A stretch of DNA of 64,000 nucleotides, taken from the NCBI GenBank assembly GCA_030433005.1, contig JAUILQ010000008.1, positions 17,106-81,105 of the forward strand. The letters run 5' to 3'. The translations under genes and the position numbers were made by a program. Shown here piece after piece: positions 37,521-64,000 of the stretch (the first letter of the stretch is position 1; the number at the start of each line of letters is the position of its first letter). This DNA comes from Alphaproteobacteria bacterium (GTDB lineage Bacteria; Pseudomonadota; Alphaproteobacteria; Kiloniellales; DSM-21159). Under the pieces are notes generated by a model, which was not told the origin of the DNA, searched no databases, and saw nothing but the letters and a program-made list of their open reading frames with translations.

Positions 37521-38684
37521 TCAGCCCGCCTCGGGGTCCGGCGCGGGCGGGGCCGCCGGCTGCTCCAGCAGCTGCTGGGCGAAGCCGACGTAGAGCCCGG
37601 CCAGGCTGTCCCAGGACTTCGGCCCCAGCGCCGTCTCGACCGCGGCCTCGGAGCAGCGGCTGTAGAGCCGCGGCGACTCGATCAGCTCCATGACCGCCTG
37701 GGCGAAGGCCTCGCCGCTCAGCGCCTTGGCGACCACGCCGGTGCCGTAGCCGGCGATCTCCTCGGCCAGGCCGCCGACCGGCGTCGAGACCGCGGGCAGG
37801 GCGGCGAACTCGGCCGCCGCCAGGGCGCCCGACTGGCTGGCCTCGCGGTAGGGCAGCAGCAGCATGTCGGCCTCGGCCAGCATGTCGCCGATCTCCTCCT
37901 CGCCGATCCAGCGGTTCTCCCACTGCAGGCCCGGCAGGTTGCGCAGGCCGGCGCCGTAGAGGCTCTCGTCGCCGCGCCCGGCGATGTTGAGGCGCACCCG
38001 CGTGCCGTAGCGCCGGCGCAGCAGCTTGTAGGCGTCGGCCAGGATGTCGATGCCCTTGTACTCCAGCACCCGGCCGAAGAAGAGCAGCTCGATGGCGCGG
38101 TTCTCCGGCAGGCTGCGCACCGGATGCGGGGTTTCGCCGAAGGAGAAGCTGCCGTGCGGGATCACCGCGCTGCGCTCGGGCGGCAGGTCGGGCCGCCGGG
38201 CCTGGAGCTGGCCGGCGACGTGGTGGGTCAGCGCGATCAGCGCGTCGGCCTGGGCGATGTCGCGGGTGAGGGTCCAGCGCCTGAGCCGGCTGCTCTCGCC
38301 GGGATGCGGCTCGGCGTCGTGCGCGACCAGACAGTAGGGCAGGCCGGCGCGCTTCAGGGTCGGGGCCACGAAGGGCGACCAGAGATGGCTCATGGTCGAG
38401 ATCACCAGGTCGACCTGCTGCTCGCGCAGGAACTGCACGAAGCGCCGGCGCAGCAGCGGCAGGCGCAGGAAGCCGGCGGCGTAGCCGCGCGCGCTGCTGT
38501 AGGTGTCGACCTCGTAGGACGGCAGGCCGAGCTCGCGCATCGGCTCGGCGTAGTCGCTCTGCCGCGAGAAGCTGAGCGCCAGCTCGACGTCGTCGCGCCG
38601 CTGCAGCGCGCGCGCCAGCTCCCAGGTGTAGCGCGGGCCGCCGCCCTTGCGGTTCCAGTGCCAGAGCAGGATGCGCGGGGTCAT
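37521..38684 (-). CDS. Glycosyltransferase, GT-B fold, GT4-like
   Basis: C-terminal half has the EX7E-type region (LLLPYREASQSGALAAAEFAALPAVSTPVGGLAEEI). LLFFGRVLEYKGID. 4-nt overlap with the upstream gene. Confidence 0.88.
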   Translation of the reverse strand: MTPRILLWHWNRKGGGPRYTWELARALQRRDDVELALSFSRQSDYAEPMRELGLPSYEVDTYSSARGYAAGFLRLPLLRRRFVQFLREQQVDLVISTMSHLWSPFVAPTLKRAGLPYCLVAHDAEPHPGESSRLRRWTLTRDIAQADALIALTHHVAGQLQARRPDLPPERSAVIPHGSFSFGETPHPVRSLPENRAIELLFFGRVLEYKGIDILADAYKLLRRRYGTRVRLNIAGRGDESLYGAGLRNLPGLQWENRWIGEEEIGDMLAEADMLLLPYREASQSGALAAAEFAALPAVSTPVGGLAEEIAGYGTGVVAKALSGEAFAQAVMELIESPRLYSRCSEAAVETALGPKSWDSLAGLYVGFAQQLLEQPAAPPAPDPEAG

Positions 38685-40438
38685 CGCGCCTCCGCGGGCG
38701 CCCGGGTGGCGGCCTGGGGGGCGACGGGCTGCCGCTCGGCCGGGAAGACGAAGGGCCGGCGCTTGAGAATGCCGTCGCAGATCGTGTCGAGGCCGGGCGT
38801 GGCGCCGGGCCGCAGGGCGGCGAGCCCGTCGAGCCGGGGCCGGTAGGGCGGCCAGGCGCCGGTCGGTTCCATGAAGGGCAGGGGAATCATCCGTCGGAAG
38901 AAGAAGTGATAGGCGTAGCGCCGGGCGCGCGCCACCGTGTCGCCGTCGAGCCGCCGGCCGGCCGGCAGCTCGGCGAGCAGCTCGCGGTAGTGCGACGGAC
39001 TGGCGGCGTCGCGGGTCAGGCCCTTGTTGCGGATCCAGGCCTCGCCGGCAACGATCGTCGGTATGCCCATGGCCGTCAGCTCGACTCCCATCTTGGTGCC
39101 GTAGATCAACGCGCTGTCGCAGAGCTCCAGCAGGGCGTAGGTGCTAACCGGACTTTCTGGCGGGACGATGAAAACATTGCCGGGCAAACGGGGAAACCGC
39201 CTTGCGAGTTCGTCGGCGACACGCTCGCGCGAGGCCGGGGTGCCCTTGAGCTCGGCCGGGTGCACGCGGATCGCCAGCTGCAGGTCCGGCCGCTCGGCGA
39301 AGGCGCGGATGCTGTCCTCGACCCAGTCCATCATCGAGGCGAAGGCGTTGGCCGGATAGTGCAGCTGGGCGTCCCAGACGACGTTGGTCAGCAGCCCGAC
39401 GGTCGGCTTGCCGGGATCGAGCCCGAGCTGCCCGGCGATCCAGCCGCTCTCGAAGCGCGGCGCCTCGTGGAACCAGATCCAGTCGCCGGCGCCGGTCCAG
39501 CGGCTCTTCAGGTAGTCCAGGATCTCGGCCTCGCGGCCGGCCTCGAGCGGCAGCGCGTCCCAGGCCTCGGTCGGCTCGTCCATCAGCGTGTGGTGGTAGG
39601 TGTCGTCGTGGCTGAAGATGAAGCAGTGCCGGCGGTAGGCCGGGTTCCAGGTGACGACCTTGGCGCCGGCGGCGCGCGCGCCCAGCACCGCCGGCCCCTG
39701 GGGCACGTAGATGCCGTGATGGGCGACGACGATTTCGAAGCCCTGTTCGGCGACCAGGCGGCGCACCGCCAGGAAGGTCAGCAGCGCGGCGTGCAGGTAG
39801 CGGCGCAGCACCGCCTCGCCGCTCGGCTCGTCGTCGAGCGAGCCCTTGGCGAAGAAGCGCAGGGCGCCGGCCAGCGCCTGCTCGCCGAGCGGCGCGCCCT
39901 CGAAGCGCAGCGCCGGGATCTCGGCGGCCGGCGTCTCGGCGGCGAGGTCCGCGGCGCGGCCGCGGTCCTCGGCGGACAGCCACTGGCCGTAGGTAAGGAC
40001 CGGCAATCCGCTGGTCGCGAAGCCGTCGGCGGCGGGCGCGTAGCACTGTCCGCAGAGCTCCGAGGGGCCCTTGCGCACGAAGCGGCCGGGATCGGGGTAC
40101 CAGCCCGCCTCGGCCATCTGGCAGGCCGGCAGCGCCGAGTCGCACAGCAGGGTCGAGACGCGCGCGCCGCGCAGCGTCAGCGCGACGCCGAGCATCGAAT
40201 CGAAGCCGGCGAGGCCGAGGTGCCCGCCGATGCCGGTGGCGACCAGCACCTTCGGGCCGCCTGCCGACTCGCGGGCGGACTCCCAGGCCGGCCAGTCGTC
40301 GCCGAGCAGCGCGCGCCAGTCGGGGTGGCCGCCGTGCCGCGCGATGCGGCGCAGCCGCGCCATGCGTAGCGGCCGCACGACCGGCAGGCCGCGCAGCCGC
40401 GCCTTCAGGGCCTTTCGGAGCTCTCCCGCAACGGCCAT
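38681..40438 (-). CDS. Capsule polysaccharide biosynthesis-type protein (Capsule_synth / KpsC-KpsS-like fold suspected)
   Basis: 585 aa. IRVHPAE plus CDSALIYGTKMGVELTAMGIPTIVAGEAW resemble the HP and nucleotide-sugar-binding segments of KpsS/KpsC-type transferases. Basic N-terminus. Start ATG 40438. Confidence 0.6.
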   Translation of the reverse strand: MAVAGELRKALKARLRGLPVVRPLRMARLRRIARHGGHPDWRALLGDDWPAWESARESAGGPKVLVATGIGGHLGLAGFDSMLGVALTLRGARVSTLLCDSALPACQMAEAGWYPDPGRFVRKGPSELCGQCYAPAADGFATSGLPVLTYGQWLSAEDRGRAADLAAETPAAEIPALRFEGAPLGEQALAGALRFFAKGSLDDEPSGEAVLRRYLHAALLTFLAVRRLVAEQGFEIVVAHHGIYVPQGPAVLGARAAGAKVVTWNPAYRRHCFIFSHDDTYHHTLMDEPTEAWDALPLEAGREAEILDYLKSRWTGAGDWIWFHEAPRFESGWIAGQLGLDPGKPTVGLLTNVVWDAQLHYPANAFASMMDWVEDSIRAFAERPDLQLAIRVHPAELKGTPASRERVADELARRFPRLPGNVFIVPPESPVSTYALLELCDSALIYGTKMGVELTAMGIPTIVAGEAWIRNKGLTRDAASPSHYRELLAELPAGRRLDGDTVARARRYAYHFFFRRMIPLPFMEPTGAWPPYRPRLDGLAALRPGATPGLDTICDGILKRRPFVFPAERQPVAPQAATRAPAEAR

Positions 40439-40452
40439 CGCCGTCGCGGCCG

Positions 40453-42384
40453 CTAGTGCGACAGCGTGGCGGCGATGCCCGCGGCCAGGCTCTCGGCGTC
40501 GAGGCCGGCGTGCTTCAGCACGTCGGCGTGGGTGCCGGAGGCCGGCACCTCGGTGAGGCCGAAGCGCCGGGCCTTGAGGCCGCCCAGGCCCTGCTCGAAG
40601 GCCGCGGTCATGATGCGCTCGCCCTGGCCGCCGTCGAGGTAGTGGTTGTCGAGCGTGAAGAGCGCCGACTTGCCGGCCAGGGTCTTGGCCAGCCAGGCGC
40701 CGTCGACGCGGTTCAGCCAGGGCAGGTTGACGACCTCCAGTCCGATGCCGCGCTCCTTCAGCAGGTCGGCGGCGGCGCAGGCCTGGGCCAGCATGACCAT
40801 GCCGTAGGCGATGATCACCGCCTCGCCGTCGTGGCCGCCGACGCGCACGCCGTGGCCGAGCGAGGGCTTGTAGCCGGCCGGCAGCGAGAAGGGCAGCGGC
40901 CAGGGCACCGAGGTCATGCGGAAGTAGCTCGAGCCCTCGGTCTCCTCGACCGCCCAGTCGACCAGCGGGCCGACCTCCTCGGGGCAGGAGGGCTCGACGA
41001 TGGTCAGGCCGGGCATGCCGCCGACCGCGGCGATGTCGCGCACCGACTGGTGCGAGTGGCCCGGGCCGCCGGGGACCATGCCGGCCAGCCAGCCGACGTA
41101 GATGACCTTCGTGTGCTCGGTGGCGTTGTTGTAGATCTGCTCGTTCGGCCGGGTCGACAGGAAGCAGGCGAAGGAGTTGCAGACCGGGATCATGCCCTTC
41201 AGCGCCATGCCGCCGGCCTGGCTGACCATGTCCATCTCGGCGATGCCGCACTCGACCGTGCGCTCCGGGAAGCGCTCGCGGAAGGGGATCAGGCCGGTGT
41301 CGAGCAGCAGGTCGGCGTCGAGCGCGACCAGGTTGTCGTGGCGCTCGGCGGCCTTGATCAGCGCCTCGGTGTAGGCCGGCAGCAGCCGCTTGGTCTCGCC
41401 CGGCTGCGGTGCCGGCTTGTTCTGGACGGTCTCCAGCTCCAGCTTCTCGGCGCCGGCGGCGTCGAGCTGCGCGTTGATGCTGTCGATCAGCTCCTGCGCC
41501 GCCTTGGTGTACTGGTCGGCCTTGGGCGCGCCGGAATGGAAGGTGTACTGGGCGGCGTCCGACTCCATGGCGGTGTGCTCCATGAAGGAGACGCCCTTGC
41601 CCTTGATGGTGTCGCAGATGATGACCTGCGGCACCTCGGCCTTCTTGCAGCGCTCCAGCGCCGCGGCGAGCTGGCCGAGGTCGTGGCCGTCGATGCGCTC
41701 GACGTGCCAGCCGAAGGCGGCGAACTTGGCCGGCAGGTCGCCGAGGTCGCTGGTCTGGGTCAGCAGGTAGTCGGACTGCAGCTTGTTGTGGTCGACGACC
41801 ACGGTGATCTCGCTCAGCTTGTGGTTCGCCGCCGAGACCAGCGACTCCCAGATCTGGCCCTCCTGCAGCTCGCCGTCGCCGGTCATCACGTAGATCCGCG
41901 CGTCGATGCCGCGCCGGCGGTGCGCGAAGGCCATGCCCTTGGCCTTGGAGATGCCCATGCCGAGCGCGCCGGTGTTGGTCACCATGTTCGGCGTGCGCAC
42001 GTCGGGGTGGCCGGGCAGGCCGTCGACCTGGCGCAGCTTGTGGACGAACTCGGCCGGCAGCTTGCCGAGCGCGATCATCACGGCGTAGAGGCCGGGCGCG
42101 TCGTGGCCCTTGGACGAGAAGTAGAGGTCGCGGTTGCTGCCGTCGTCGTTGGCGCGCATGTCGTTGAGGTGCAGCCAGGAAACGATGTCCATCGACGAGA
42201 AGCTGGAGCCGATGTGGCCCGAGCCGGCGCGCGCGATCATGTAGAGCGCGTTGAGCCGGGCCATGTCCGAGAAGATGCGCGTGCGCACCGCCGGCTCGGC
42301 GTTGAGGCTGCGGATCCGGTCGAACTCCTTGGTCTCCGCGTAGTAAAGCGCGCCCTCGACGGCCTTGCCGATCAACTCACCCAC
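40453..42384 (-). CDS. Transketolase-family ThDP enzyme, N- and C-terminal halves fused (643 aa)
   Basis: GSGHIGSSFSSMDIVSWL, ThDP motif GDGELQEGQIWES, Pyr-domain CGIAEMDMVSQAGGMA, and a C-terminal transketolase domain. Confidence 0.88.
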   Translation of the reverse strand: MGELIGKAVEGALYYAETKEFDRIRSLNAEPAVRTRIFSDMARLNALYMIARAGSGHIGSSFSSMDIVSWLHLNDMRANDDGSNRDLYFSSKGHDAPGLYAVMIALGKLPAEFVHKLRQVDGLPGHPDVRTPNMVTNTGALGMGISKAKGMAFAHRRRGIDARIYVMTGDGELQEGQIWESLVSAANHKLSEITVVVDHNKLQSDYLLTQTSDLGDLPAKFAAFGWHVERIDGHDLGQLAAALERCKKAEVPQVIICDTIKGKGVSFMEHTAMESDAAQYTFHSGAPKADQYTKAAQELIDSINAQLDAAGAEKLELETVQNKPAPQPGETKRLLPAYTEALIKAAERHDNLVALDADLLLDTGLIPFRERFPERTVECGIAEMDMVSQAGGMALKGMIPVCNSFACFLSTRPNEQIYNNATEHTKVIYVGWLAGMVPGGPGHSHQSVRDIAAVGGMPGLTIVEPSCPEEVGPLVDWAVEETEGSSYFRMTSVPWPLPFSLPAGYKPSLGHGVRVGGHDGEAVIIAYGMVMLAQACAAADLLKERGIGLEVVNLPWLNRVDGAWLAKTLAGKSALFTLDNHYLDGGQGERIMTAAFEQGLGGLKARRFGLTEVPASGTHADVLKHAGLDAESLAAGIAATLSH

Positions 42385-42424
42385 GGTCTTCGCTCCCTCG
42401 TTCTGTCAGGTCCGGGCAGGGTCC

Positions 42425-43186
42425 TCAGGACCCTGCCCAGGGCTCCACGGCGACCGGCGGCAGCGTCGCCTGGCCCTCGGCCAGCAGGTGCTGCGCGTAC
42501 CACCAGTCTTCCATGTCGTTGATGTCGAAGCCCTCCATCGCGTCGGTCAGGAAGGGCATCAGGACGGTGCCCGCGATCGTGCCGCCCTCCAGGGCGACCC
42601 GGGTCCAGGCGATCTCCAGGCTGGCGTTCTGCACGTGGACCGTCGGCAGGCTGGCCATCTGGCTGGAGTGCCAGGGCGTCTCGCCTTCCTTGGTCAGCGG
42701 CATCAGAGGGTACATGCGGCGGCCGCGCACGACCCACATCTTGCCGGGGTGCTGGCGGACCTTCTCGACCGCGCGCAGGGAATCGACGCCCTCCTCGGCC
42801 AGGAACTCCTGCCAGGCGCGCCGGATCGTCTCCGGCTGGCGGAACGGGCTGGTCGGCCGCAGGATCGAGAAGGCGTCGCGGCCGCGGCCCTGCTCGGACA
42901 GCATCTTCAGGGTGTAGACGATCCACTCGATGTCGGGCGAGGTCGAGGAGGCGAACTCCGCCGGCCGCAGGCCCGGCACCTCGGCGCCGTAGTGGCGGGC
43001 GATCTCGGCGTAGGCCTCGCTGTCGGTCGAGACCAGCACCTCGGAGAAGACGCCGGACTCGATCGCGGCGCGGATCGTGTAGGCCATGACCGGGTGGTCG
43101 CCGAGGCGCCGGATGTTCTTGTCGGCGACCCGCTTGGAGCCTGAGCGGGCCGGGATCAGCGCGACGCAGCGGGGGGTGTCGGTCAT
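42425..43186 (-). CDS. Acylneuraminate cytidylyltransferase-family CMP-ulosonic acid synthetase (NeuA/CTP_transf_3)
   Basis: ALIPARSGSKRVADKNIRRLGDHPVMAYTI is the canonical NeuA/KdsB-like N-terminus. 253 aa. Confidence 0.85.
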   Translation of the reverse strand: MTDTPRCVALIPARSGSKRVADKNIRRLGDHPVMAYTIRAAIESGVFSEVLVSTDSEAYAEIARHYGAEVPGLRPAEFASSTSPDIEWIVYTLKMLSEQGRGRDAFSILRPTSPFRQPETIRRAWQEFLAEEGVDSLRAVEKVRQHPGKMWVVRGRRMYPLMPLTKEGETPWHSSQMASLPTVHVQNASLEIAWTRVALEGGTIAGTVLMPFLTDAMEGFDINDMEDWWYAQHLLAEGQATLPPVAVEPWAGS

Positions 43187-43204
43187 GGCGGCGCGGGCGA
43201 GGTT

Positions 43205-44659
43205 CTAGAGCTTGGCGGGATCGACGTTGAGGTAGATGTCCTTGAGCTCGCTGTAGACGTCCAGCGCCTCGGTGCCCGGCTCGCGGCTGCCGTTGCCCGA
43301 CTGCTTGGGGCCGCCGAAGGGCATGTGCGGCTCCGAGCCGTAGGTGCCGGCATTGACCACCGTGGCGCCGGCCTGGACCGCGTGGCTGAACGCCAGGGCG
43401 CGGTCGACGCTGCGCGTGTGGATGCAGGCGGTCAGGCCGTAGGGGTGGTTGTTCGCCGCCGCCAGGGCGTGGGCGAAGTCGCGCACCCGGTAGAGGCAGG
43501 CGACCGGGCCGAACAGCTCGACCTGGGAGATCTCGTCGTCGGGGGCGGCGCCCTCGACCACGGTCGGCGCCAGGTAGCAGCCCTTGTCGCCGACCCGCTT
43601 TCCGCCGGTCAGCACCTTGGCGCCCTTCTTGGCGGCCCGGTCGATGGCGCCCAGCATGTTGCCGAGCTGGCGCTCGTTGATCACCGGGCCGAGGTCGCAG
43701 TCCTCCTCGACGCCCAGCTTCTGCTGCTCGGTCGCCGCGACCAGCTTGTCGCGGAAGGCCTCGTAGACGCTCTCGAAGACCAGGAAGCGGCTGCCGGCGG
43801 CGCAGCGCTGGCCGGCGTTCGAATAGGCCGACAGGCAGGCCCACTTGACCGCGTGGTCGATGTCGGCGTCGTCGCAGACCACGAAGGGGTTCTTGCCGCC
43901 GAGCTCGAGCGACAGCTTCTTGAGCTGCCGGCCGCAGGACTCGGCGATGCGCCGGCCGACCGCGGTCGAGCCGGTGAACGACAGGACGTCGACGCCCGGG
44001 TGGTCGACCAGCGGCTGGCCGGCCTCTGCGCCCAGGCCGTGGACGACGTTGAGCACGCCCCTGGGCAGCCCGGCCTCCTCGGCGATCTTAGCCATCAGCC
44101 AGGCCGAGACCGGCGTGTCCTCGGCCGACTTCAGCACCACGCCGTTGCCGCAGATCAGCGCCGGGAAGACCTTCCAGGCGAAGTTCGGGGCGGGCGTGTT
44201 GGCGGCGATGATCAGGCCGGCGACGCCGCAGGGCTGGCGCACCGTCATGTTGTACTTGTTGGGCGTGCCGCTCGGCATGGTGCGGCCGAACAGGCGCTGG
44301 CCCTCGCCGGCGAAGAAGCGGCCGCACTGGATGGCGCCGCCGACCTCGCCCTTGGAGTCCTTCAGGCGCTTGCCGGCCTCGGCCGCGACCGCCGCGGCGA
44401 TCTCGTCGGCGCGCGCCTCCAGGGCGTTCATCACCTGGTGCAGGATGTGGCCGCGCTGCACGGCCGGCATCGCCGCCCAGGCCGGCTGCGCCGCGCGCGC
44501 CGCGGCGACCGCCTCGGAGACGTCGTGCGCCTCGGAGGCGGCGACCTGGCAGATCTCGCTGCCGTCGTGAGGATTGACGTTGGCGAAGCTGCGGCCGCTC
44601 TCGGCCGGCCGCTCTTCGCCACCGATCAGGTTCGGCAGGATCGAAGGCAGGTCGGTCAT
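43205..44659 (-). CDS. NAD(P)+-dependent aldehyde dehydrogenase
   Basis: Catalytic Glu and Cys contexts (LELGGKNP, GQRCAAGSR), FTGSTAVGR. 484 aa. Confidence 0.9.
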   Translation of the reverse strand: MTDLPSILPNLIGGEERPAESGRSFANVNPHDGSEICQVAASEAHDVSEAVAAARAAQPAWAAMPAVQRGHILHQVMNALEARADEIAAAVAAEAGKRLKDSKGEVGGAIQCGRFFAGEGQRLFGRTMPSGTPNKYNMTVRQPCGVAGLIIAANTPAPNFAWKVFPALICGNGVVLKSAEDTPVSAWLMAKIAEEAGLPRGVLNVVHGLGAEAGQPLVDHPGVDVLSFTGSTAVGRRIAESCGRQLKKLSLELGGKNPFVVCDDADIDHAVKWACLSAYSNAGQRCAAGSRFLVFESVYEAFRDKLVAATEQQKLGVEEDCDLGPVINERQLGNMLGAIDRAAKKGAKVLTGGKRVGDKGCYLAPTVVEGAAPDDEISQVELFGPVACLYRVRDFAHALAAANNHPYGLTACIHTRSVDRALAFSHAVQAGATVVNAGTYGSEPHMPFGGPKQSGNGSREPGTEALDVYSELKDIYLNVDPAKL

Positions 44660-44782
44660 GTCGGGTCGATGGCCTTGCTGGGGCTGGTCGGGAAAGGGCG
44701 GGAGTCGCTTCCGGAGGGCCTCAGGAAGGTGCCGCTCGCACGCTCGGGCAGGGCTTCCGGAGGCCGGGACCGCGGGCGGCCG

Positions 44783-45610
44783 CTACCAGGCCGTGAAACC
44801 GCCGTCGATCGTGAGATTGGCCCCGGTCATATAGCCCGAGGCCTTGGACATCAAGAAGATAATCGTGCCGTTGTAGTCGCCCTCGTCGGCCATCCGGCCG
44901 AGCGGCACCTTGGCGCAGTAGCGGTCCAGGAAGGCCGCGTCCTGGTTGTTGAAGACGCCGGCGAAGGTCACCGTGTTGACCCGCACGCCCTTCGGTCCCC
45001 AGTAGGTCGCGAGGTAGCGCGTCAGGTTGTAGAGCGAGGACTTGCTGGCGGAGTAGGCGACCGGCTTGAAGAAGGTCTCGCCGCGCTGGCGACGGTACTC
45101 GTAGAGGTTCTGGTCGGGCGAGACCAGGCCGTAGATCGAGGCGACGTTGACGATTGAGCCGCCGCCGGCCTCGGCCATGGCGCCGCCGAACACCTGGCAG
45201 CACAGGAAGGGGCCCTTGGCGTTGACCTCCATGACCTTGTCCCAGGAGGACTCGGGATAGGTCTCGAAGGGACCGGTCTCCTCGGCCGGCGAATCGGGGG
45301 GCGAGTCGAGCGCGGCGTTGTTGACCAGGCCGCTCGGGGTGGCCCAGCGCTCGGCGATGTGCCGGCGCGCCGCCTCCAGCGAGGCGCGGTCGGTAACGTC
45401 GGCGCCGACGAACAGCAGGTTCGGGTCCTCGGCCTGGTCGCCGAAGCGCTTGCGCACCAGCTCGGCGTCGAGCTCGAGGCCCGGGCCGCGGTCGAGCACC
45501 GCGACGCGCGCGCCGTGGGCGAGCAGCGCCAGGCTGAACTGCCGGCCGAGCTGGCCGAGGCCGCCGGTGACGACCACGACGTGGCCGTCGAGATCGAAGA
45601 GTCCGCTCAT
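44783..45610 (-). CDS. Classical short-chain dehydrogenase/reductase (SDR)
   Basis: VVVVTGGLGQLG cofactor motif, NNAA, catalytic YSASK. 275 aa. Confidence 0.9.
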   Translation of the reverse strand: MSGLFDLDGHVVVVTGGLGQLGRQFSLALLAHGARVAVLDRGPGLELDAELVRKRFGDQAEDPNLLFVGADVTDRASLEAARRHIAERWATPSGLVNNAALDSPPDSPAEETGPFETYPESSWDKVMEVNAKGPFLCCQVFGGAMAEAGGGSIVNVASIYGLVSPDQNLYEYRRQRGETFFKPVAYSASKSSLYNLTRYLATYWGPKGVRVNTVTFAGVFNNQDAAFLDRYCAKVPLGRMADEGDYNGTIIFLMSKASGYMTGANLTIDGGFTAW

Positions 45611-45649
45611 GCTTGCACCTTCTCCAGGGCTTCGAAGGACGGGCTGCCG

Positions 45650-52598: not shown

Positions 52599-52614
52599 GT
52601 CGTGCGCGCCCCGC

Positions 52615-56953: not shown

Positions 56954-58681
56954 TCAGCGCCGTGACGAGGAGCGCAGGCGGGAAAGCGCCCGCCGGCCGC
57001 GCTTGTCTAGTCGCTTGAGGCGGCCGCGGGCAAGGCGCAGGGCGTTGCCGGCGACGATCGAGGTCGCCCGCGCCGGCCGGCGGACCAGCCGGCTGTGCAG
57101 CCAGCGGGCGCCGCGCCCGGTCGCGCGCAGGGCCCGGCCGCTGAGGCTGACCTTGTCCCACTTCTTGGCGTTGCGCCCGGCGCCGACGGCCAGCAGGTAG
57201 AGCGCCGGCGGCAAGAGCAGGGGCTGCAGCAGGCGCGGCCAGGCCGGCAGGCGCGCGGGCTGCAGCGCGGCCGCCGAGACCAGCGCGTCGACGGCGAGCG
57301 GCGTCGAGGGCCGGTCGAGGCCCTGCGGGCGCAGGAAGTCGCCCACGAAGCGCCGGATGCTGGCCAGCTCCTCGGGCGTCTGCTCGATGCCCGCGGAGAG
57401 CTGGGCGAGATGCTCCTCGAAGTCGGCCGCGGTCATCAGGAAGCCGTCGCGGGTCAGGTGGGCGAAGTGCACCATGCCCTCCTGGCTCTCGGCGATCTCG
57501 GGATCGAGCACGGTGTAGCAGCGCTTGCCCAGGATGCCGGCCTCCAGCATGGCGCTGGTGTTGATGCCGACGACGGCGGCGGCGTGGTGCAGCGAGTCGA
57601 AGTAGTCGGCGCGCGCCGTCTCGTTCACCGGGTAGCCGCCGAGCCGGGGGTGCACCGCGAGGTTCTCGGCGTCGCGGATCTCCGGCGCGTTCCACTGCTC
57701 GGCGAACTTGGCGCTGCCGGGGTGCGGGCGAATCAGCACGCCGATGCTGCGCAGCCGCGGGTCCTCGGCCGCGCGCAGCGCGGCCAGCCAGCGCTTGAGG
57801 AAGACCGACTCGGTGCGCGCGATGAACACCGACGAGCAGGTGTAGAGGATGAAGGGGCGGTCGGGATCGAGGCCGACCTGGGCGCAAAAGGTCGCGCGGT
57901 CACGGCTCGGACGGCGCTCGAACCAGGGGTCGAACAGCTGGGCGCCGGTGATCGCCACCCTGTCCGGCGCGACGCCGTGCAGCTCGACCGCCTCGTCGCG
58001 CTGGAAGGCGTTCCAGACCAGCATGCGGTCGGGATCGAGCGGCACCACGCCCTTGTTGGTCAGGTTGTCCCAGCTGGCGACGCAGTGCACGGCCGGCACG
58101 CCCAGGCGGCGCGCGATCTTCAGGTATTCGGCCTGCATCGAGTTGTGGTCGACCAGCGGCGTCACGGCGACCAGGTCCGGCCGCGTCGCCTGGACCGCGC
58201 GCAGCAGGCGGCGATCGAGCGGCAGCGCCAGCTCTGCCCAGTAGAGCAGCCGCGAGAAGCGTACCGCGAGGCGTTCCCGGGTCGCCTGCGGCAGCGCGCC
58301 GAAGCGGCGGAACGGCGGGTAGAGGAAGCCCTCGGCGCGGCGCGCGCACTTGACGGCGTGGCGCAGCCGCGGCGTCAGGTAGCGCAGGTAGTTGCGCAGC
58401 GCCCGGACCTGGTAGGCGAGCTGGGTCCAGAGATCGTTGCGCGGCGGCAGCGCCAGCAGCTCCAGGGACGGCAGCTCGGCGACCAGGCGGTCGGCCAGCG
58501 CGGCGACGTCTGCCGTGACCTTCTCGTGGGCCTCCTCGTAGCCGAGCACCACGGTGTGGCCGCGCGCCGTCAGCTCGCGCAGCGTCGTCTCGTAGTTCCG
58601 CAGGTACATGAAGTGGCGGACCACGAAGAGGATGCGCAGCGGCCGCGGCGCCTCAGGGCGCGCGGGGGAGGACTCGGTCAT
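56954..58681 (-). CDS. Uncharacterised protein, family P copy 1 (GT-B-like, Capsule_synth-like C-terminal half, Arg-rich tail)
   Basis: 575 aa. Paralogue of 58678-60375 and 63011-64000+ (shared ASWDNLTNKG, ITGAQLFD, FILYTCSS, IRPHPGS, GINTSAMLEAGILG, MVHFAHL). ATGA overlap with the upstream paralogue. Confidence 0.75.
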   Translation of the reverse strand: MTESSPARPEAPRPLRILFVVRHFMYLRNYETTLRELTARGHTVVLGYEEAHEKVTADVAALADRLVAELPSLELLALPPRNDLWTQLAYQVRALRNYLRYLTPRLRHAVKCARRAEGFLYPPFRRFGALPQATRERLAVRFSRLLYWAELALPLDRRLLRAVQATRPDLVAVTPLVDHNSMQAEYLKIARRLGVPAVHCVASWDNLTNKGVVPLDPDRMLVWNAFQRDEAVELHGVAPDRVAITGAQLFDPWFERRPSRDRATFCAQVGLDPDRPFILYTCSSVFIARTESVFLKRWLAALRAAEDPRLRSIGVLIRPHPGSAKFAEQWNAPEIRDAENLAVHPRLGGYPVNETARADYFDSLHHAAAVVGINTSAMLEAGILGKRCYTVLDPEIAESQEGMVHFAHLTRDGFLMTAADFEEHLAQLSAGIEQTPEELASIRRFVGDFLRPQGLDRPSTPLAVDALVSAAALQPARLPAWPRLLQPLLLPPALYLLAVGAGRNAKKWDKVSLSGRALRATGRGARWLHSRLVRRPARATSIVAGNALRLARGRLKRLDKRGRRALSRLRSSSRR

Positions 58682-60375
58682 TTGCCGCCCTTCTCCTGGG
58701 TCGCCCGGCGGCCGAGCAGGTGGCGTGCGCGCTGCACGATGTGGCGCCGCGCCAGTTGGTTCGTACGCTTCGCCGCCCGGCGCGCCCGGTTGCCGACCCA
58801 GCGCGCGGGGCGTCGCCAGAGGTGCTTGCGCAGCCGCAGGCCGAGCTCGTGCAGCTGGCGCAGGCGGTGCTCGCGCAGCGACATCTCCGACCAGCGCTTG
58901 CGCGCGCGCAGGTCCTCGACCGACAGCAGGTAGAGCGCCAGCGGGTAGTAGAGCGCGCGCAGCAGCGGCGCCGTCACGCCGGCCCGCTGCGGCCGGGGCC
59001 GCAGCGCGGCGACCTCCCCGATCGCCGCGGCGAGCTGCGGGGTCGCCGGCCGATCGATGCCGTTGGGACGCAGGAAGTCGGCGACGAAGTCGCGCTCCGC
59101 CTGGCTCTGGCCGGGATGCTCGACGGCATCGGCGAGCTGCCGGAAGTGCTCCTCGAAGCTGTCGGCGGTCTTCAGGAAGCCGCCGCGCAGCAGGTGCGCG
59201 AAGTGCAGCATGCCGCCCTGGCTCTCGGCGACCTCGGGGTCGAGGATGGTGAAGCAGCGCCGGCCGAGGATCGCCGCTTCCAGCATGGCGCTGGTGTTGA
59301 TGCCGACGAGGCCCGCCGAGTGATGGAGCGAGTCGTAGTAGTCGTCCTGCGCCTGCGGCGTCACCGGATAGCCGCCGGCGCGCGGGAACAGCACGGCCTG
59401 ATCGGGGAAGCGCGCGATCAGCTCGGCGACCTGCTGGGCGAACTTGCTGCTGCCCGGATGCGGGCGGACCAGCACGCCGATGCCGCGCAGCGCCGGCGGC
59501 GGGTCGTCGCGCAGGCGGGTCAGCCAGCGCTCCAGGAAAACCGCCTCGTAGCGCGAGATGAAGATCGAGGAGCAGGTGTAGAGCAGGAAGGGACGGGTCG
59601 GGTCGAGGCCGACCTGGCGGCAGAAGCTCTCGCGATCCCGGCTCGGCCGCCGGTCGAACCACTGGTCGAACAGCTGCGCGCCGGTCACCGCGATGCGCTC
59701 GGCCGGCACGCCGTGCAGCGCGCGCGCCTCCTCGGCCTGGTGGCGGTTCCAGACCACGACGCGGTCGGGGCAGACCTGGATCAGGCCCTTGTTGGTCAGG
59801 TTGTCCCAGCTGGCGACCAGCAGGGCCGAGGGCACGCCTTCGCGGCGGGCCTGCTTGATGTACTCGGTCTGGTTCGGGCCGAAGTCGAGCAGCGGCGTGA
59901 CCAGCAGGCAGTCGGGCCGCTCGGCCTCGAACAGCGCCTCGATCGGCCGCGCCGGCGGCAGCGCGCCCTCGATCGACTCGGCGAGGCCGCGGATGCGCGG
60001 CAGCAGGCGGCGGCGCCAGGCCTCGGACAGCCGGGCGAGGCGGCGCAGCGGCGGGAAGACGAAGGATTCGGCGCGCGCCGCGCAGCGCCGGGCGCCCTCG
60101 AGGCGCGGATCGCAGTAGCGCAGGAAGTCGTTGAGCACGCGCACCTGGGAGGCCAGCGAGGCCCAGCGATCGTCGCGTGCCGGGGCCTGGATCAGGCGGA
60201 TGCGCGGCTGCTCGCGCAGCAGGGCCTGGGTCGCCTGCTCGATCTCGGGCGGCAGCAGGTTGCGGCTGCTCTCGTAGGCCAGGACCACCTCGTGGCCCTG
60301 CTCGGCGAGCAGCGCCAGGGTCGAGCCGTAGTTGCGCAGGTACAGCAGGTTGCGCATGACGAAGAGGATCTTCAC
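58678..60375 (-). CDS. Uncharacterised protein, family P copy 2
   Basis: 565 aa. N-terminus MKILFVMRNLLYLRNY is GT-B-like. Same conserved blocks as copy 1. ATGA overlaps at both ends. Confidence 0.75.
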   Translation of the reverse strand: MKILFVMRNLLYLRNYGSTLALLAEQGHEVVLAYESSRNLLPPEIEQATQALLREQPRIRLIQAPARDDRWASLASQVRVLNDFLRYCDPRLEGARRCAARAESFVFPPLRRLARLSEAWRRRLLPRIRGLAESIEGALPPARPIEALFEAERPDCLLVTPLLDFGPNQTEYIKQARREGVPSALLVASWDNLTNKGLIQVCPDRVVVWNRHQAEEARALHGVPAERIAVTGAQLFDQWFDRRPSRDRESFCRQVGLDPTRPFLLYTCSSIFISRYEAVFLERWLTRLRDDPPPALRGIGVLVRPHPGSSKFAQQVAELIARFPDQAVLFPRAGGYPVTPQAQDDYYDSLHHSAGLVGINTSAMLEAAILGRRCFTILDPEVAESQGGMLHFAHLLRGGFLKTADSFEEHFRQLADAVEHPGQSQAERDFVADFLRPNGIDRPATPQLAAAIGEVAALRPRPQRAGVTAPLLRALYYPLALYLLSVEDLRARKRWSEMSLREHRLRQLHELGLRLRKHLWRRPARWVGNRARRAAKRTNQLARRHIVQRARHLLGRRATQEKGGK

Positions 60376-61796
60376 GGCCGCGCCCCCGAATCGGCTCCCG
60401 CGCCCGGGCCGGCGACCGCCGCCGTCGCCGCCTCGTCCATCGCCGCCACCGGCAGGAAGGCCAGGGCGCCGTAGCCCTCGCGGTTGAAGGCGCGCAGCGC
60501 CAGGTCGAGGTGGCTGGAGACGAAGTGCGTGTGGGTGAAGAAGCTCAGGGTGTCGACGCCGAGCAGCGGCCCCAGGTAGCTGAAGCCGCCGAAGGTGCAG
60601 TAGAGCTTGTCGGCGTGGGCGACCAGCGCGGTCTGGACCGCCAGGTTGTCGCTCGCCCCGAGCAGCGGCGTCGCGTCGACCAGGCGGTCGCGGGGAATGC
60701 CCGGCAGCAGCTCGGCGGCGTCGCTGTGGTCGTCGACACGCAGGCCGGTATTGAGCAGCACGACGCGGTGCCGCTCGGTCAGCCGCCGCAGCAGCCGCTC
60801 GACGAAGGGCGCGACGCGCTCGCCCTCGAAGAACTCCGAGCGGTAGAACTTGACCGCGACGTAGGGGCCCTCGAAGGGCAGGCCCTCGGGACGCGGCAGG
60901 TCGCGCGGCAGCGGCGCGTAGTCGAGCGCCGGCAGGAAGATCTCGCCGCCGAAGCGCTTCAGCCAGGTCGTGCGGAACAGGCCGTAGAGCGCCGCCGGGT
61001 AGAGCGTCCGGTGTCCTTCCAGGCCGAGCTCTTCTGCGATGTCGGCGACCAGCCGGCGCTCCGGCTCGGTCGGGCGGAACGGCTTCTTGCCCTCGTGCTC
61101 CTGCTCGATCTCTTCGCCGAGCGCCCGGAACGCGTCCGGGCTCAGGCGGTCGAACAGCTCGACGTAGCGGCCGGCGATGTCCTGGTACCAGGCGCCGACG
61201 CCGCCGCGCGAGATCGCCACGACCCGCTCGCGCGGGATCCCGGCCTCGCGCAGGTAGCGGCGCAGCAGCGGGATCCAGTAGAGCAGCTCGAAGCCGACCT
61301 CCATGGTCCAGGGGCCGAGCACGATGGGATGGTCGCCGGGACCCAGCACCTCGGCGAGGTCGGGCTGCTCCAGGCCGCGGTCGATGGCCAGCAGCTCGAT
61401 CAGCCGGGCGTCGGCCGACTGGCGGTCCGCCGGGTCCAGCGGGCCGAGGCCGCGGGCCAGGGTGTCGCGCAGCGTCGCGATGTAGGGCTTGGGGCGGAGC
61501 TCGGCGCCGAGCCGCTCCAGCCAGCGCGCCGGCAGCCCGCGCCTGGCCTCGCCGGAGAGCTTGGCGGCGGCGCTGTCGACGAGCCGCCAGAAGGCCTCGC
61601 CGCGCCCGGCTTCCGGCGTCTCGGCGACGGCCGGCGGCAGGCTGCGCTCCAGGAAGTCCAGGCGCTCGGCCGGCGCCAGCCGGCCGTAGCCGGCCTTGGC
61701 CAGGGCGCGCGCGCGCGCCGGCGTGTCGGCCCGACGCTCCAGGTCGCGCAGCCTGGCCTGGAAGCGCCGTTCGGCGAGCTGCTTCAGGAGGTCCAC
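60372..61796 (-). CDS. Uncharacterised protein, family Q copy 2
   Basis: 474 aa. Same blocks as copy 1 (IVLGPWTMEVGFELLYWIPLLR, FEGPYVAVKFY, VVLLNTG, DNLAVQTALVAHA, FGGFSYLGPLL), with a longer helical N-terminus. Confidence 0.7.
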   Translation of the reverse strand: MDLLKQLAERRFQARLRDLERRADTPARARALAKAGYGRLAPAERLDFLERSLPPAVAETPEAGRGEAFWRLVDSAAAKLSGEARRGLPARWLERLGAELRPKPYIATLRDTLARGLGPLDPADRQSADARLIELLAIDRGLEQPDLAEVLGPGDHPIVLGPWTMEVGFELLYWIPLLRRYLREAGIPRERVVAISRGGVGAWYQDIAGRYVELFDRLSPDAFRALGEEIEQEHEGKKPFRPTEPERRLVADIAEELGLEGHRTLYPAALYGLFRTTWLKRFGGEIFLPALDYAPLPRDLPRPEGLPFEGPYVAVKFYRSEFFEGERVAPFVERLLRRLTERHRVVLLNTGLRVDDHSDAAELLPGIPRDRLVDATPLLGASDNLAVQTALVAHADKLYCTFGGFSYLGPLLGVDTLSFFTHTHFVSSHLDLALRAFNREGYGALAFLPVAAMDEAATAAVAGPGAGADSGARP

Positions 61797-61854: not shown

Positions 61855-62847
61855 TTATCGCCCGACCGTCAAGCCCTCGAAAGCCTCGGCCGGCAGCGCC
61901 TCGGGGTCGCGGGCGTAGAGGCCGTACCAGCAGCGCTCGGCCTCGCCGTGGGCGGTCGGCTTGCGGAACTCCCGGGCCTTGGTCAGGCCGCGCTCCGCGA
62001 AGAAGCGGTCGACCCCGCCGCTGATCTCCTCGGTCGCGGTGATCTCGATCATGACGGTCTTGAGGCCCGGATCGGCGAAGCACGTGCCGCCGCCCGCCAG
62101 CACCTCCAGCTCGCCCCCGTCGACGTCGATCTTGACGTGGGTCGGCCGCGGCAGCCCGAGCGCCTCGATCGTCGAATCGAGAGGCCGGCCGACGACCGGC
62201 AGCACGTGTGCCGCGCCCTCGTCGCCCTTGCCGGCGAGCTCCTCGCTGCCGTGCATCGCCGAGCCGGCCTCCAGGTTGCGGAAGCCGAAGGAGAGCAGCC
62301 GGTCGGCGTCGGACAGGGCGTAGGGCAGCGGCACGACCTGCGCCTCGACGCCGTTGAGCACCAGGTTGCGGTTGAGGTCCGTGTAGTTGGCGAAGGCCGG
62401 CTCGAAGGCCACGACCTTCAGCTCCGGCCCGTGCAGCTTCGCGGCGAGCAGGCTGTAGACGCCGGTATTGGCGCCGATGTCGTACAGCACCTCGCCCGGC
62501 GCCAGGCAGGATTCGATCCAGGCGATGGTCCAGGGCTCCTTCAGGGCCGCGCGGTGCCGCAGGTAGGACGAGCGCGTCTCGGCGTGCAGCAGCACCTCGG
62601 CGCGCTCGTACTCCAGGCGCTTGACCATGCGGATGCCCTGGAGGGCGTCGATCTTGTCGCGCTCGGTCATCGAATCGAGCGCGGTCCGGATCACCTCGTG
62701 GCGCTTGTCGATGTGCAGCTTGCGCACGCTCTTGAGCAGCCGGGCGTAGGCCTTCTCGGGATCCTCGACGATCGCGCGCACCGGCTCGCCGCCGCCGGCG
62801 AGCCGCTTCAGCTTCTTCATGGCCTTCGTCGCCGACAGCTCTTTCAT
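61855..62847 (-). CDS. FkbM-family methyltransferase with ~100 aa helical N-terminal extension
   Basis: VLYDIGANTGVYSL (FkbM motif), VVAFEP, HVKIDVDGGELEVL. Start ATG 62847. Confidence 0.8.
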   Translation of the reverse strand: MKELSATKAMKKLKRLAGGGEPVRAIVEDPEKAYARLLKSVRKLHIDKRHEVIRTALDSMTERDKIDALQGIRMVKRLEYERAEVLLHAETRSSYLRHRAALKEPWTIAWIESCLAPGEVLYDIGANTGVYSLLAAKLHGPELKVVAFEPAFANYTDLNRNLVLNGVEAQVVPLPYALSDADRLLSFGFRNLEAGSAMHGSEELAGKGDEGAAHVLPVVGRPLDSTIEALGLPRPTHVKIDVDGGELEVLAGGGTCFADPGLKTVMIEITATEEISGGVDRFFAERGLTKAREFRKPTAHGEAERCWYGLYARDPEALPAEAFEGLTVGR

Positions 62848-63010
62848 CGGGGGATCCTGGAATGCGGGACGGCGCCGACGGCCCGGAAGAAGCCGGCCGC
62901 ACGCCACGCGCGCCCGCTCCCCCCGTGCCCTGCGGCAAGGCCGGCTGAGATAGCAGATTTCACCGTGGTGCGGTCAAGCGACAGGCGTGCGCGCCGACCG
63001 GTGGCTTGCA

Positions 63011-64000
63011 TCAGCCGCCGCCGGCCCGACCGCCGCTCGGCGGGTCTCCCGAGGCCGGGCCGGCCCGGGCCACCGCCTCGCGCTTGGCGGCGTCGAGCGA
63101 ACGGTGGCGCAGCAGGGCGCCCGGCAGCCGGGCGGCGATCGCCAGCAGCCGGCCGCCACGGCGCCGCAGCCGGCGCAACCGGTACCAGAGGTTGCCGCTG
63201 TGGCCGTCCTGCGCCGGCGACAGGCCGCGGCTCAGGCGCTGCAGCAGGGGATGCTGGCGCAGCCACTTCTTGCCGGTGCGCTGGGCGTCGAGCAGCAGGA
63301 ACAGCCGGGCCAGCGGCCACAGCAGCAGCCGCAGCCCGCGGCTCGCGGTCGGCAGGCCCTGGTCCAGCGGCTTCGCAACGGCCAGGCGCTCGACCGCATC
63401 GGCGAGCAGCGGGGTCGCCGGGCGCTCGAGCCCGTGCGGCCGCAGGAAGGCCTCGACCGAGGCGGCGCGCGCCTGGTTTCCGGGGCCGCCATCGTCCGGG
63501 TCGCCATCGTCCGGGCTGCCATCGTCCGGGCTGCCATCGCCCGGCTCGGCGCGCAGGGTCGCCGCCAGCTGCGCCAGGTGCTCGTCCAGCGTCTCGGCCG
63601 GGCGCACGAAGCCGTAGCGGGTCAGGTAGGCGAAATGCAGCATGCCATCCTGGGCCTGCTCGGTCTCGGCGTCGCGGATGGTGAAGCAGGGCCGGCCGAT
63701 GATCGCCGCCTCCAGCATCGCGCTCGTGTTGATGCCGACGACGGCGGCCGCGTGATGGATGGAGTCGAAGTAGAGCCGGCGGTTCTCCTCGGTCACCGGA
63801 TAGCCGCCGCTGGCCGGCCGCACGACGACCCGGTCGAAGGCGGCGATGCGCGGGTCGTTCCACTGCGCCGCCCGCTTGGTGCTGCCCGGGTGCGGCCGGA
63901 TGATCACGCCGGCCTCGCGCAGCTGCGGATCGTCGCTGGCGCGCAGCGCCGTCAGCCAGCGCACCAGGAAGGCGGACTCCAGGCGCGAGATGAAGATCGA
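63011..64000 (-). CDS. Uncharacterised protein, family P copy 3 (C-terminal 329 aa; N-terminus beyond window end)
   Basis: Frame is open to nt 64000 (…SIFISRLESAFLVRWLTALR aligns with SSIFISRYEAVFLERWLTRLR of copy 2). Shares IIRPHPGS, GINTSAMLEAAIIG, MLHFAYL. Confidence 0.75.
   Translation of the reverse strand, partial: SIFISRLESAFLVRWLTALRASDDPQLREAGVIIRPHPGSTKRAAQWNDPRIAAFDRVVVRPASGGYPVTEENRRLYFDSIHHAAAVVGINTSAMLEAAIIGRPCFTIRDAETEQAQDGMLHFAYLTRYGFVRPAETLDEHLAQLAATLRAEPGDGSPDDGSPDDGDPDDGGPGNQARAASVEAFLRPHGLERPATPLLADAVERLAVAKPLDQGLPTASRGLRLLLWPLARLFLLLDAQRTGKKWLRQHPLLQRLSRGLSPAQDGHSGNLWYRLRRLRRRGGRLLAIAARLPGALLRHRSLDAAKREAVARAGPASGDPPSGGRAGGG
63488..63547. repeat. In-frame 15-bp tandem repeat x4 (gccatcgtccgggyy) inside family P copy 3
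   Basis: Read directly. Encodes GDGSPDDGSPDDGDPDDGGP on the minus strand. The insert is absent from copies 1 and 2. Confidence 0.9.

Follow-up and report, generated by a model that had tools for sequence, protein, structure and literature searches.

In a 64,000-nucleotide stretch of alphaproteobacterial DNA (contig JAUILQ010000008.1 of assembly GCA_030433005.1; the whole stretch is called the window below), the region from nt 37521 to the right-hand end is a genuine sugar-polymer gene cluster of a Tistlia-like alphaproteobacterium. Two features of this locus are new: a sugar cassette that contains a transketolase lacking the phosphate pocket, and two unannotated families of GT-B glycosyltransferases, here called P and Q. 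We favour the reading, with a probability of roughly 0.55, that the locus specifies a lipid-primed variant of ATP-binding cassette (ABC) transporter-dependent assembly, with the exporter encoded in trans, and that its product is a methylated polymer containing a tailored, possibly dicarboxylic, ulosonic acid.

The sugar cassette consists of six minus-strand genes (locus genes are numbered g01 to g20 by position). They encode a NeuB-family ulosonic-acid synthase of 366 amino acids (g09, 49361–50461; PF03102 with 264 bits, plus SAF), a KdsC-type sugar-acid phosphate phosphatase of the haloacid dehalogenase (HAD) type (g07, 183 aa, 45650–46201), a classical short-chain dehydrogenase/reductase (SDR) oxidoreductase (g06, 275 aa, 44783–45610; PF13561/PF00106), an aldehyde dehydrogenase (ALDH; g05, 484 aa, 43205–44659; PF00171 with 525 bits), a CMP (cytidine monophosphate)-ulosonate synthetase, below the CMP-transferase (g04, 253 aa, 42425–43186; CTP_transf_3, PF02348, E = 1.6e-19), and a transketolase-like thiamine diphosphate (ThDP) enzyme with three transketolase domains recognised by Pfam (g03, 643 aa, 40453–42384). 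The synthase falls under the equivalog cut-offs for both NeuB (TIGR03569, 295 vs 400 bits) and PseI (TIGR03586, 249 vs 340 bits), and is about equally distant from the PDB sequences of SpsE, PseI and NmB NeuB. The CMP-transferase reaches 125 bits on the PseF model, under the cut-off of 205.7, and the phosphatase scores 104.2 bits on TIGR01670 (cut-off 106.95), 105 bits on KdsC and 86 bits on the Kdn-9-P phosphatase model (cut-off 180). None of the NCBIfam models nearest to the SDR (gluconate 5-dehydrogenase, mannonate oxidoreductase and KduD) or to the ALDH (alpha-ketoglutaric semialdehyde and 2,5-dioxovalerate dehydrogenases) is matched above its cut-off; the substrates of these model enzymes are 2-keto-3-deoxy sugar acids and 2-keto-acid semialdehydes. 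Pfam and NCBIfam searches of the 20 locus proteins revealed no NeuC-type epimerase, aminotransferase or N-acetyltransferase.

The prevalence of the cassette was sampled with an alignment of eight transketolase orthologues, which led to 80 metagenome loci, 38 of them at least 10 kb long; at least 569 metagenome relatives were confirmed in the transketolase scan. Among the 38 longer loci, the CMP-transferase was present in 34, ALDH in 30, SDR in 26, NeuB in 25 and KdsC in 13, and the CMP-transferase gene lay immediately beside that of the transketolase in 47/80 loci. NeuB, KdsC, SDR, ALDH, CMP-transferase and transketolase are thus one conserved cassette, and this co-occurrence indicates that the transketolase, SDR and ALDH are part of a CMP-sugar pathway and not chance neighbours. 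Since the enzymes occur together in transketolase-sampled loci separately from the transferases (g02, described below, in 13/38 and family Q in 6–7/38), the cassette is a self-standing, widespread unit. It was found in Planctomycetota (Gemmatales), Fibrobacterota (Fibrobacteria), several Alphaproteobacteria, Chloroflexota and one cyanobacterium. The KdsC gene adjoins that of NeuB in Tistlia and in several other loci.

The transketolase, SDR and ALDH tailoring steps are the most unusual feature of the locus. All transketolase equivalog models in NCBIfam stay below cut-off for g03, and its top PDB match is human transketolase (TK) with about 229 bits and an end-to-end alignment. Using a MAFFT alignment of g03 with seven orthologues from different phyla, we compared pocket positions, in human TK numbering, that belong to the active site of the human enzyme (PMC8016368). 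Equivalents of the catalytic and ThDP-binding residues H37, H77, H110, H258 and E366 are invariant in all eight sequences, and g03 is predicted to be catalytically competent; in this and in its three domains it resembles known transketolases (EC 2.2.1.1; human TK 4KXU/3MOS and the split-chain Carboxydothermus TK). By contrast, the equivalents of R318 (L/I/V/Q/A), S345 (invariant Asp), H416 (L/Y/F), D424 (invariant Pro) and R474 (S/I) are replaced in 8/8 sequences, and Gln428 is represented in the g03 family by His, as in microbial enzymes. In human TK, R318, S345, H416 and R474 presumably hold the substrate phosphate, and D424 presumably reads the acceptor C2 hydroxyl; judging from these substitutions, g03 should not bind ordinary sugar phosphates. 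The remodelled phosphate pocket would make it suited to a substrate downstream of the KdsC-type phosphatase. A further difference from transketolase is that g03 lies in a CMP-sugar operon and not in a pentose-phosphate context. A literature search for transketolase in association with nonulosonic or NeuB clusters, or for bacterial ulosaric acid biosynthesis, returned nothing relevant.

The remainder of the cassette resembles the Kdn pathway. In Bacteroides thetaiotaomicron this pathway uses a Kdn-9-P synthase, a Kdn-9-P phosphatase and a CMP-Kdn synthetase, and its animal counterpart is NANS/NANP; like the cassette, it combines a NeuB-family synthase, a KdsC/HAD-type phosphatase and a CMP-transferase and has no NeuC, aminotransferase or acetyltransferase. 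This set of enzymes, as in the Kdn pathway, implies a phosphorylated aldose as substrate. Unlike in that pathway, g07 is far below the Kdn-9-P phosphatase cut-off, and the SDR, the transketolase-like enzyme and the ALDH have no counterpart. From the gene content, the co-occurrence and the residue substitutions, which are directly observed, we infer the following substrates and order of reactions. The NeuB-type synthase would join phosphoenolpyruvate and a sugar phosphate, after which the KdsC-type enzyme would strip the phosphate to leave a free ulosonic acid. The SDR would then oxidise the penultimate carbon to give a HOCH2-CO-CHOH ketol, the transketolase without a phosphate pocket would take off the terminal C2 unit to leave an aldehyde, and the ALDH would convert this aldehyde into a second carboxylate. 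The resulting 3-deoxy-ulosaric (Dha-like) acid would be activated as a CMP-sugar by the CMP-transferase. The opposite transketolase direction, a C2 extension, is possible. A route in which the product of GDP-mannose 4,6-dehydratase (Gmd) feeds the NeuB step to give a 9-deoxy sugar was considered and rejected, because a KdsC-type phosphatase implies a terminally phosphorylated substrate.

For plants and green algae, neither the pathway to Dha nor its activated form is known as yet (PMC12168206, PMC3355719). A bolder version of our reading, in which the cassette would be the first route to a CMP-activated 3-deoxy-ulosaric (Dha-type) acid and P and Q two new glycosyltransferase families for such sugars, seems unlikely to us. 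Cell walls of prasinophyte algae contain sulfated polymers with Kdo, 5-O-methyl-Kdo and Dha (PMC3355719). One compact Gemmatales locus (L080), which has no ALDH and no exporter, carries two sulfotransferase genes (6743–7867 and 15433–16620), and these hint at a sulfated variant of the glycan.

The second new element, family Q, has more than 2,000 homologues, none with a Pfam domain. The window encodes three members, namely g16 (575 aa, 56954–58681), its paralogue g17 (565 aa, 58678–60375; 52% identity to g16) and g20 (63011–64000; 46–51% identity to g16 and g17), all on the minus strand; g20 is truncated at its 5' end by the end of the window, and the full-length protein has 598 aa (P0042) and is encoded on the 123,856-bp contig that also encodes a protein 100% identical to g16. 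An AlphaFold2 model of g16 built from a 52-sequence alignment (predicted local distance difference test score, pLDDT, 92) showed a GT-B fold, to which long helices are added at the C-terminus. Its Foldseek matches were generic GT-B proteins, among them UDP-GlcNAc 2-epimerases, WaaG and, at rank 36, TagF. Two motifs are invariant in the family, SWDNLTNKG and R318-P319-(H320)-P321, and the C-terminal tail is basic, with 25–26 K/R among the final 90 residues. Both g16 and g17 match the BFO_1060 nonulosonic-acid transferase model weakly (about 27 bits vs a cut-off of 200).

A related motif is found in g02 (585 aa, 38681–40438, minus strand), a KpsC/KpsS-like (Capsule_synth-like, PF05159) GT-B enzyme encoded directly behind the transketolase gene in the window, in Tistlia and in loci L017 and L007. 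Between Alphaproteobacteria and Chloroflexota, sequences of the g02 family share about 55% identity, and the family contains an invariant R-x-H-P-A-E motif; some homologues are named 'capsule biosynthesis protein' or have precomputed PF05159 matches. Q and g02 align weakly over the invariant His-Pro (HP) region. The HP motif is common to beta-Kdo transferases and CMP-sialic acid transferases (PMC10148158) and is present in the Tannerella pseudaminic/legionaminic acid (Pse/Leg) transferase family BFO_1060 (PMC5420450). With their GT-B two-Rossmann architecture, a His-Pro motif in the C-terminal domain and genomic linkage to CMP-sugar synthesis, Q and g02 resemble WbbB (GT99), KpsC (GT107), bacterial sialyltransferases and BFO_1060, from which Q differs in its own SWDNLTNKG motif and its long basic C-terminal helix. 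At the level of this motif, the strongest candidates for CMP-ulosonate transferases are g02 and Q, and g02, a candidate lipid primer, could itself prime on lipid as in group-2 capsules. Four cysteines of g02 (C99, C106, C129 and C132) are invariant in 38/38 homologues across many phyla, which points to a site for structural Zn in the N-terminal region; to our knowledge, such a site has not been described for KpsC or KpsS.

To survey the surroundings of Q, all window proteins were searched by tblastn against 79 Q loci, one genome per species. Alongside Q, these loci contained P (47/79), the CMP-transferase (23/79), FkbM (20/79), g12 (19/79), g14 (18/79), NeuB (17/79), SDR (13/79), g11 (12/79), transketolase (11/79) and Gmd (10/79). 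Tandem arrays of 7–9 Q paralogues within about 21 kb were seen in a Gaiellaceae metagenome-assembled genome (MAG; L046, with nine paralogues the largest array) and in Acidobacteriota MAGs (L035, L061, L023 and L042); in these arrays a single unannotated GT-B family has expanded to an extreme degree.

Family P, with more than 450 homologues, is represented by g15 (426 aa, 55641–56921) and its paralogue g18 (474 aa, 60372–61796; 45% identity to g15), both on the minus strand. The AlphaFold2 model of g15 (pLDDT 84) likewise has a GT-B fold, and the predicted folds of both P and Q are confident. The best Foldseek matches of P were the GT9 heptosyltransferases TibC, WaaC and WaaF, with template modelling (TM) scores of only 0.3–0.4, and its neighbour g12 is RfaE-domain-II-like; P nevertheless differs from GT9, since neither Pfam (including PF01075) nor PDB sequences were matched and the window has no ADP-heptose genes (GmhA, HldE kinase and GmhB). 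Proteins of about 730 aa (P0178, P0181–P0183, P0186 and similar) consist of a P domain fused to a GT2 domain (PF00535), and such fusions are independent evidence of a role of P in glycan synthesis, as read from domain architecture. Profile–profile comparison of P with Q showed no relationship. Neither family gave anything significant in Pfam, NCBIfam or PDB sequence searches, and when P, Q, g02 and g11 were compared with PDB sequences, as single sequences or as profiles, only spurious matches came back. Within the locus, Pfam and NCBIfam were empty for g11, g13, g14, P (g15 and g18) and Q (g16, g17 and g20).

The other enzymes of the locus, all encoded on the minus strand, would supply and modify further sugars. 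A GT4 glycosyltransferase (g01, 387 aa, 37521–38684; PF13439/PF13692/PF00534, E about 1e-17) ends the cluster on one side. The short GT4-like glycosyltransferase g11 (312 aa, 51660–52598) has no direct Pfam match, but Glyco_trans_1_4 was matched by 11/43 members of its family of 368 representatives. It forms a conserved trio with Gmd (g10, 343 aa, 50557–51588; TIGR01472 with 446 bits, above the cut-off of 415) and with g12 (407 aa, 52615–53838), a fusion of an RfaE-domain-II-like nucleotidyltransferase (CTP_transf_like, PF01467) with a class-I S-adenosylmethionine-dependent methyltransferase (Methyltransf_11/23/25). g12 scored 71.5 bits, below cut-off, on the heptose-1-P adenylyltransferase model rfaE_dom_II and 28.6 bits on TagD, and its halves are separate genes in Gemmatales. 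Two more methyltransferases had been proposed to be FkbM-type. For g19 (350 aa, 61855–62907) this holds clearly (PF05050 with 46 bits; TIGR01444 with 82 bits, above the cut-off of 37.7); g14 (345 aa, 54607–55644) itself has no match and is a divergent FkbM-like protein through its homologues only, 10/17 of which match PF05050 weakly (best E 1e-4), and no relationship between g14 and g19 was detectable. g13 (252 aa, 53846–54604) has no family match in Pfam or NCBIfam, and in the 79 Q loci a homologue was seen only in Tistlia.

Together these parts would form a glycan assembly line of three modules on the cytoplasmic face of the membrane. The first is the sugar cassette. In the second, Gmd, g11 and g12 would supply and transfer a GDP-mannose-derived sugar; ManC (GDP-mannose pyrophosphorylase/phosphomannose isomerase, PF00483 + PF01050; 32743–34248, minus strand), which lies 3.3 kb outside the locus as first noted, likely supplies the Gmd substrate. 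In the third, soluble or peripheral GT-B enzymes would build the glycan on a lipid acceptor, with g02 and Q, the enzymes with the HP motif, adding ulosonic-type residues, P enzymes and the GT4 adding other sugars, and FkbM-type enzymes methylating. Export would proceed through an ABC-2 (Wzm/Wzt- or KpsMT-like) transporter, encoded in cis in many relatives and elsewhere in this genome. From the folds and motifs, themselves directly observed, and the comparison with relatives we infer the lipid acceptor and export in trans.

The window has about 72% GC, owing to which spurious frames crowd a mechanical list of open reading frames (ORFs), and genes were therefore called by codon-position GC. These calls recovered exactly the 19 co-oriented minus-strand genes in two blocks of the original prediction: seven genes (g01–g07) in 37521–46201 and twelve (g09–g20) from 49361 to beyond nt 64000, of which the last is incomplete at the window end. 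The 1–4-nt overlaps that had been called many were found, at 4 nt each, at only 4/18 junctions (g01/g02, g14/g15, g16/g17 and g17/g18), the remaining intra-block gaps being 2–123 nt, but the operon-like packing of both blocks is real. Hidden Markov model (HMM) searches supported the GT4, the CMP-ulosonate synthetase, the KdsC-type phosphatase, NeuB, Gmd and the nucleotidyltransferase–methyltransferase fusion as previously named, and the count of eight glycosyltransferase-like genes was borne out by AlphaFold2/Foldseek folds for Q and P and by homologue matches for g02 and g11; three genes of the first block, the transketolase-like g03, the ALDH g05 and the SDR g06, had not been named. No 19-residue stretch of any locus protein is hydrophobic in the way typical of a membrane span, and none of the proteins is an integral or polytopic membrane protein. 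GC content is 0.67–0.68 across window positions 50001–54000 (NeuB, Gmd, g11 and g12) vs about 0.72 elsewhere, and this sub-module may have a separate origin.

The locus spans about 27 kb in the window and about 33 kb in full. g16 is 82% identical to a protein of Tistlia consotensis, in which a syntenic locus is present with both blocks contiguous. The gene order there is a Q-like gene of 913 aa on the divergent strand, Q (541 aa), a methyltransferase (224 aa), P (371 aa) on the opposite strand, Q (574 aa), FkbM, P, Q, Q, P, g14, g13, g12, g11, Gmd, NeuB, KdsC, SDR, ALDH, CMP-transferase, transketolase, g02 and GT4, the orthologue of g01 being the final gene. A cupin gene and a tripartite ATP-independent periplasmic (TRAP) transporter flank the locus on one side, and on the other MAPEG, as in the window, is followed by unrelated or housekeeping genes. 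The Tistlia locus is thus about 33 kb long and closed at both ends, and it contains no exporter, polymerase or initiator. As unrelated genes bound it on both sides, the genes missing from the window are not merely beyond nt 64000, where export and priming genes might otherwise have been expected.

In the locus itself, HMM searches confirmed the reported absence of Wzx/Wzy, ABC-2, outer-membrane polysaccharide export (OPX) and polysaccharide co-polymerase (PCP), initiator, aminotransferase, acetyltransferase and NeuC families. Specifically, ABC2_membrane and exporter ATPases were found neither in 37521–64000 nor in either Tistlia flank, Poly_export (OPX) and Wzz-type (PCP) proteins neither in the window nor in the Tistlia flanks, and Polysacc_synt, O-antigen polymerase and Bac_transf initiators nowhere in the locus. 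An ABC-2 permease (Wzm/Wzt-like) was detected by tblastn in 30/79 Q loci and an ATPase in 25/79, and 22 of the 68 membrane-rich ORFs neighbouring Q in these loci are ABC2_membrane. Between g02 and Q, within the cassette, two alphaproteobacterial loci (L017 and L009) carry genes for a Wzm-like permease and for a TagH/Wzt-like ATPase, and a relative in Fibrobacteria has Wzx and Wza instead of ABC-2. An exporter was present in only 2/80 transketolase-sampled loci; it tracks with Q and not with the sugar cassette.

As ABC-dependent capsule assembly is currently modelled, KpsS and KpsC make a lipid-linked beta-Kdo primer, on which transition transferases and polymerases then act, and an initiator of the WbaP/WecA type is not needed (PMC11666461). 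By analogy, the locus fits this logic: it encodes a KpsC/KpsS-like enzyme, its transferases are all soluble or peripheral, and the exporter that it lacks is most likely an ABC transporter whose genes lie in another part of the genome, export in trans being assumed. The original prediction placed assembly, as far as the window shows, outside the standard types. The locus does lack export genes, but the likeness of g02 to KpsC/KpsS, the Wzm/Wzt-like exporters beside Q and the Wzx/Wza of Fibrobacteria speak against a new machinery, and the comparative evidence favours a variant of the ABC route. Like the group 2/3 (KpsMT) capsule loci of Escherichia coli and Neisseria, the locus combines a CMP-3-deoxy-ulosonic acid pathway and an HP-motif KpsC/KpsS-like enzyme with all-cytoplasmic assembly by soluble or peripheral glycosyltransferases, has neither Wzx/Wzy nor a phosphoglycosyl initiator, and in relatives comes with ABC-2. 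It differs from them in having no KpsM/T, KpsE/D, KpsF or KpsU, in that g02, with its Cys4 motif, is a single protein of 585 aa, in using a NeuB-type synthase instead of KdsA and in the extra SDR, transketolase and ALDH steps. An acidic, methylated glycan with a CMP-activated 3-deoxy-ulosonic acid, as first suggested, is plausible; as to the possible 6-deoxy sugar, Gmd is present, but the claim is unproven, since a 4-reductase or epimerase/reductase for its product was not found in the locus.

That gap is one of several observations that weigh against the favoured reading. ALDH is absent from the compact Gemmatales locus and KdsC occurs in only about one third of the cassettes (13/38), so the full five-step tailoring route is not universal. 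The Capsule_synth-like assignment of g02, made before, stands on a marginal PF05159 match (21 bits vs a cut-off of 20), and neither g02 nor Q matched the solved KpsC or WbbB sequences, or indeed any solved member of GT99, GT107 or the sialyltransferases, significantly. The generic Foldseek matches of Q mean that its donor chemistry is not fixed by the fold. Finally, an exporter is absent from both the window and the complete Tistlia locus.

In a rival reading the product is lipooligosaccharide (LOS)-like, a non-repeating oligosaccharide attached to lipid A-core or to a different glycolipid. Such a molecule would be moved by the inner-membrane flippase MsbA and would need no dedicated exporter, polymerase or initiator, in keeping with a complete Tistlia locus that is exporter-free on both sides. 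The glycosyltransferases, at least 8 in the window and about 11 in Tistlia, are different soluble or peripheral enzymes with basic, membrane-binding tails, as if one enzyme served each linkage rather than a polymerase, and the organism is a diderm with MlaA and MlaC encoded in the window. The frequent Wzm/Wzt-like exporters in Q loci of other lineages, however, point to an ABC-exported polymer or glycolipid, and g02 resembles the capsule primers KpsC/KpsS and not the core transferase WaaA. We regard an LOS-like product as quite unlikely.

More doubtful is the proposal that Q proteins are TagF-like phosphotransferases, which would polymerise a CDP-activated alcohol or sugar phosphate, made by the cytidylyltransferase-like domain of g12, into a teichoic-acid-like phosphodiester polymer decorated with ulosonic acid. 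The Tistlia Q orthologue bears the UniRef name 'CDP-glycerol:poly(glycerophosphate) glycerophosphotransferase', TagF is among the fold matches of Q, g12 contains a PF01467 domain, ABC ATPases beside Q score best against TagH models, and TagF-like enzymes function in Gram-negative ABC-dependent capsules (PMC11666461). Yet the TagF-like family PF04464 was not matched by Q, in which an invariant SWDN takes the place where a WHG-type motif (PMC11666461) is expected; Q co-occurs with the CMP-transferase in 23/79 loci vs g12 in 19/79, and g12 is nearer to heptose-1-P adenylyltransferase than to TagD by the scores given above.

A protein glycosylation island, in which cytoplasmic transferases would put glycans directly on flagellin, pilin or S-layer protein with no need for export genes, is improbable. 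Islands that combine NeuB and CMP-transferases with methyltransferases are typical of flagellin glycosylation, and the locus encodes no membrane proteins. The Pse/Leg transferase family of Tannerella forsythia, to which Q shows weak similarity, functions in protein O-glycosylation (PMC5420450), but Maf (PF01973), flagellar, pilin and S-layer genes are absent from the 64-kb window and from the Tistlia flanks, Q is tied to ABC-2 exporters elsewhere, and g02 is of the capsule type. The flagellin-glycosylation and Wzy-dependent readings were rejected, as no defining gene was found for either. Least probable of all is an intracellular polymethylated polysaccharide kept in the cytoplasm, analogous to the mycobacterial methylglucose lipopolysaccharide and methylmannose polysaccharide (MGLP/MMP): the three to four methyltransferase domains, the solubility of all proteins and the lack of an exporter would suit it, but relatives have exporters in cis, and we know of CMP-ulosonic acids and KpsC/KpsS-like enzymes only from surface glycoconjugates.

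Between the two blocks lie two genes that are an insertion relative to Tistlia, where about 0.6 kb separates NeuB from KdsC. One encodes a homocysteine S-methyltransferase (g08, 307 aa, 48353–49276, minus strand; PF02574 with 192 bits), which is absent from the Tistlia locus; it is co-oriented with the NeuB gene g09 and lies 84 nt downstream of it, and its membership of the locus is uncertain. It could help to recycle methyl donors for the three or four locus methyltransferases. The other (46644–48332, plus strand) encodes a 562-aa protein with the signal peptide MKHKLSWGACALVAAGCVATPAAAQ and no Pfam match, whose C-terminus, ...LDASYRF, is like those typical of outer-membrane beta-barrels or autotransporters. 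An overlapping plus-strand ORF of the mechanical list (46571–48346) is in the wrong frame, with an Arg-rich nonsense translation, and was rejected.

The rest of the window is housekeeping in nature, with Mla genes, a branched-chain amino-acid ABC importer, a P-type ATPase, a radical-SAM protein, a major facilitator superfamily (MFS) transporter and ManC. The 609-aa radical-SAM protein (28096–29925, plus strand) adjoins the P-type cation ATPase (30031–32715, plus strand), with a LysR regulator upstream, and the pair appears to have no relation to the glycan locus.

The sugar cassette occurs commonly among environmental bacteria from many phyla and holds three enzymes without a role in any described ulosonic-acid pathway. 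Resolving it would probably reveal a new acidic monosaccharide together with a new use of transketolase chemistry, on a sugar acid that bears no phosphate. Should an ulosaric acid be formed, the cassette would also provide a testable candidate route for Dha, for which a biosynthetic pathway has long been missing from plant cell-wall biology. Experiments are feasible, because Tistlia consotensis USBA 355, which is in culture, bears the same locus. The unannotated glycosyltransferase-like families P and Q, which comprise hundreds to thousands of proteins and lack relatives in Pfam and the PDB, form arrays of as many as nine paralogues and dominate the glycan loci of soil and aquatic phyla that have received little study.

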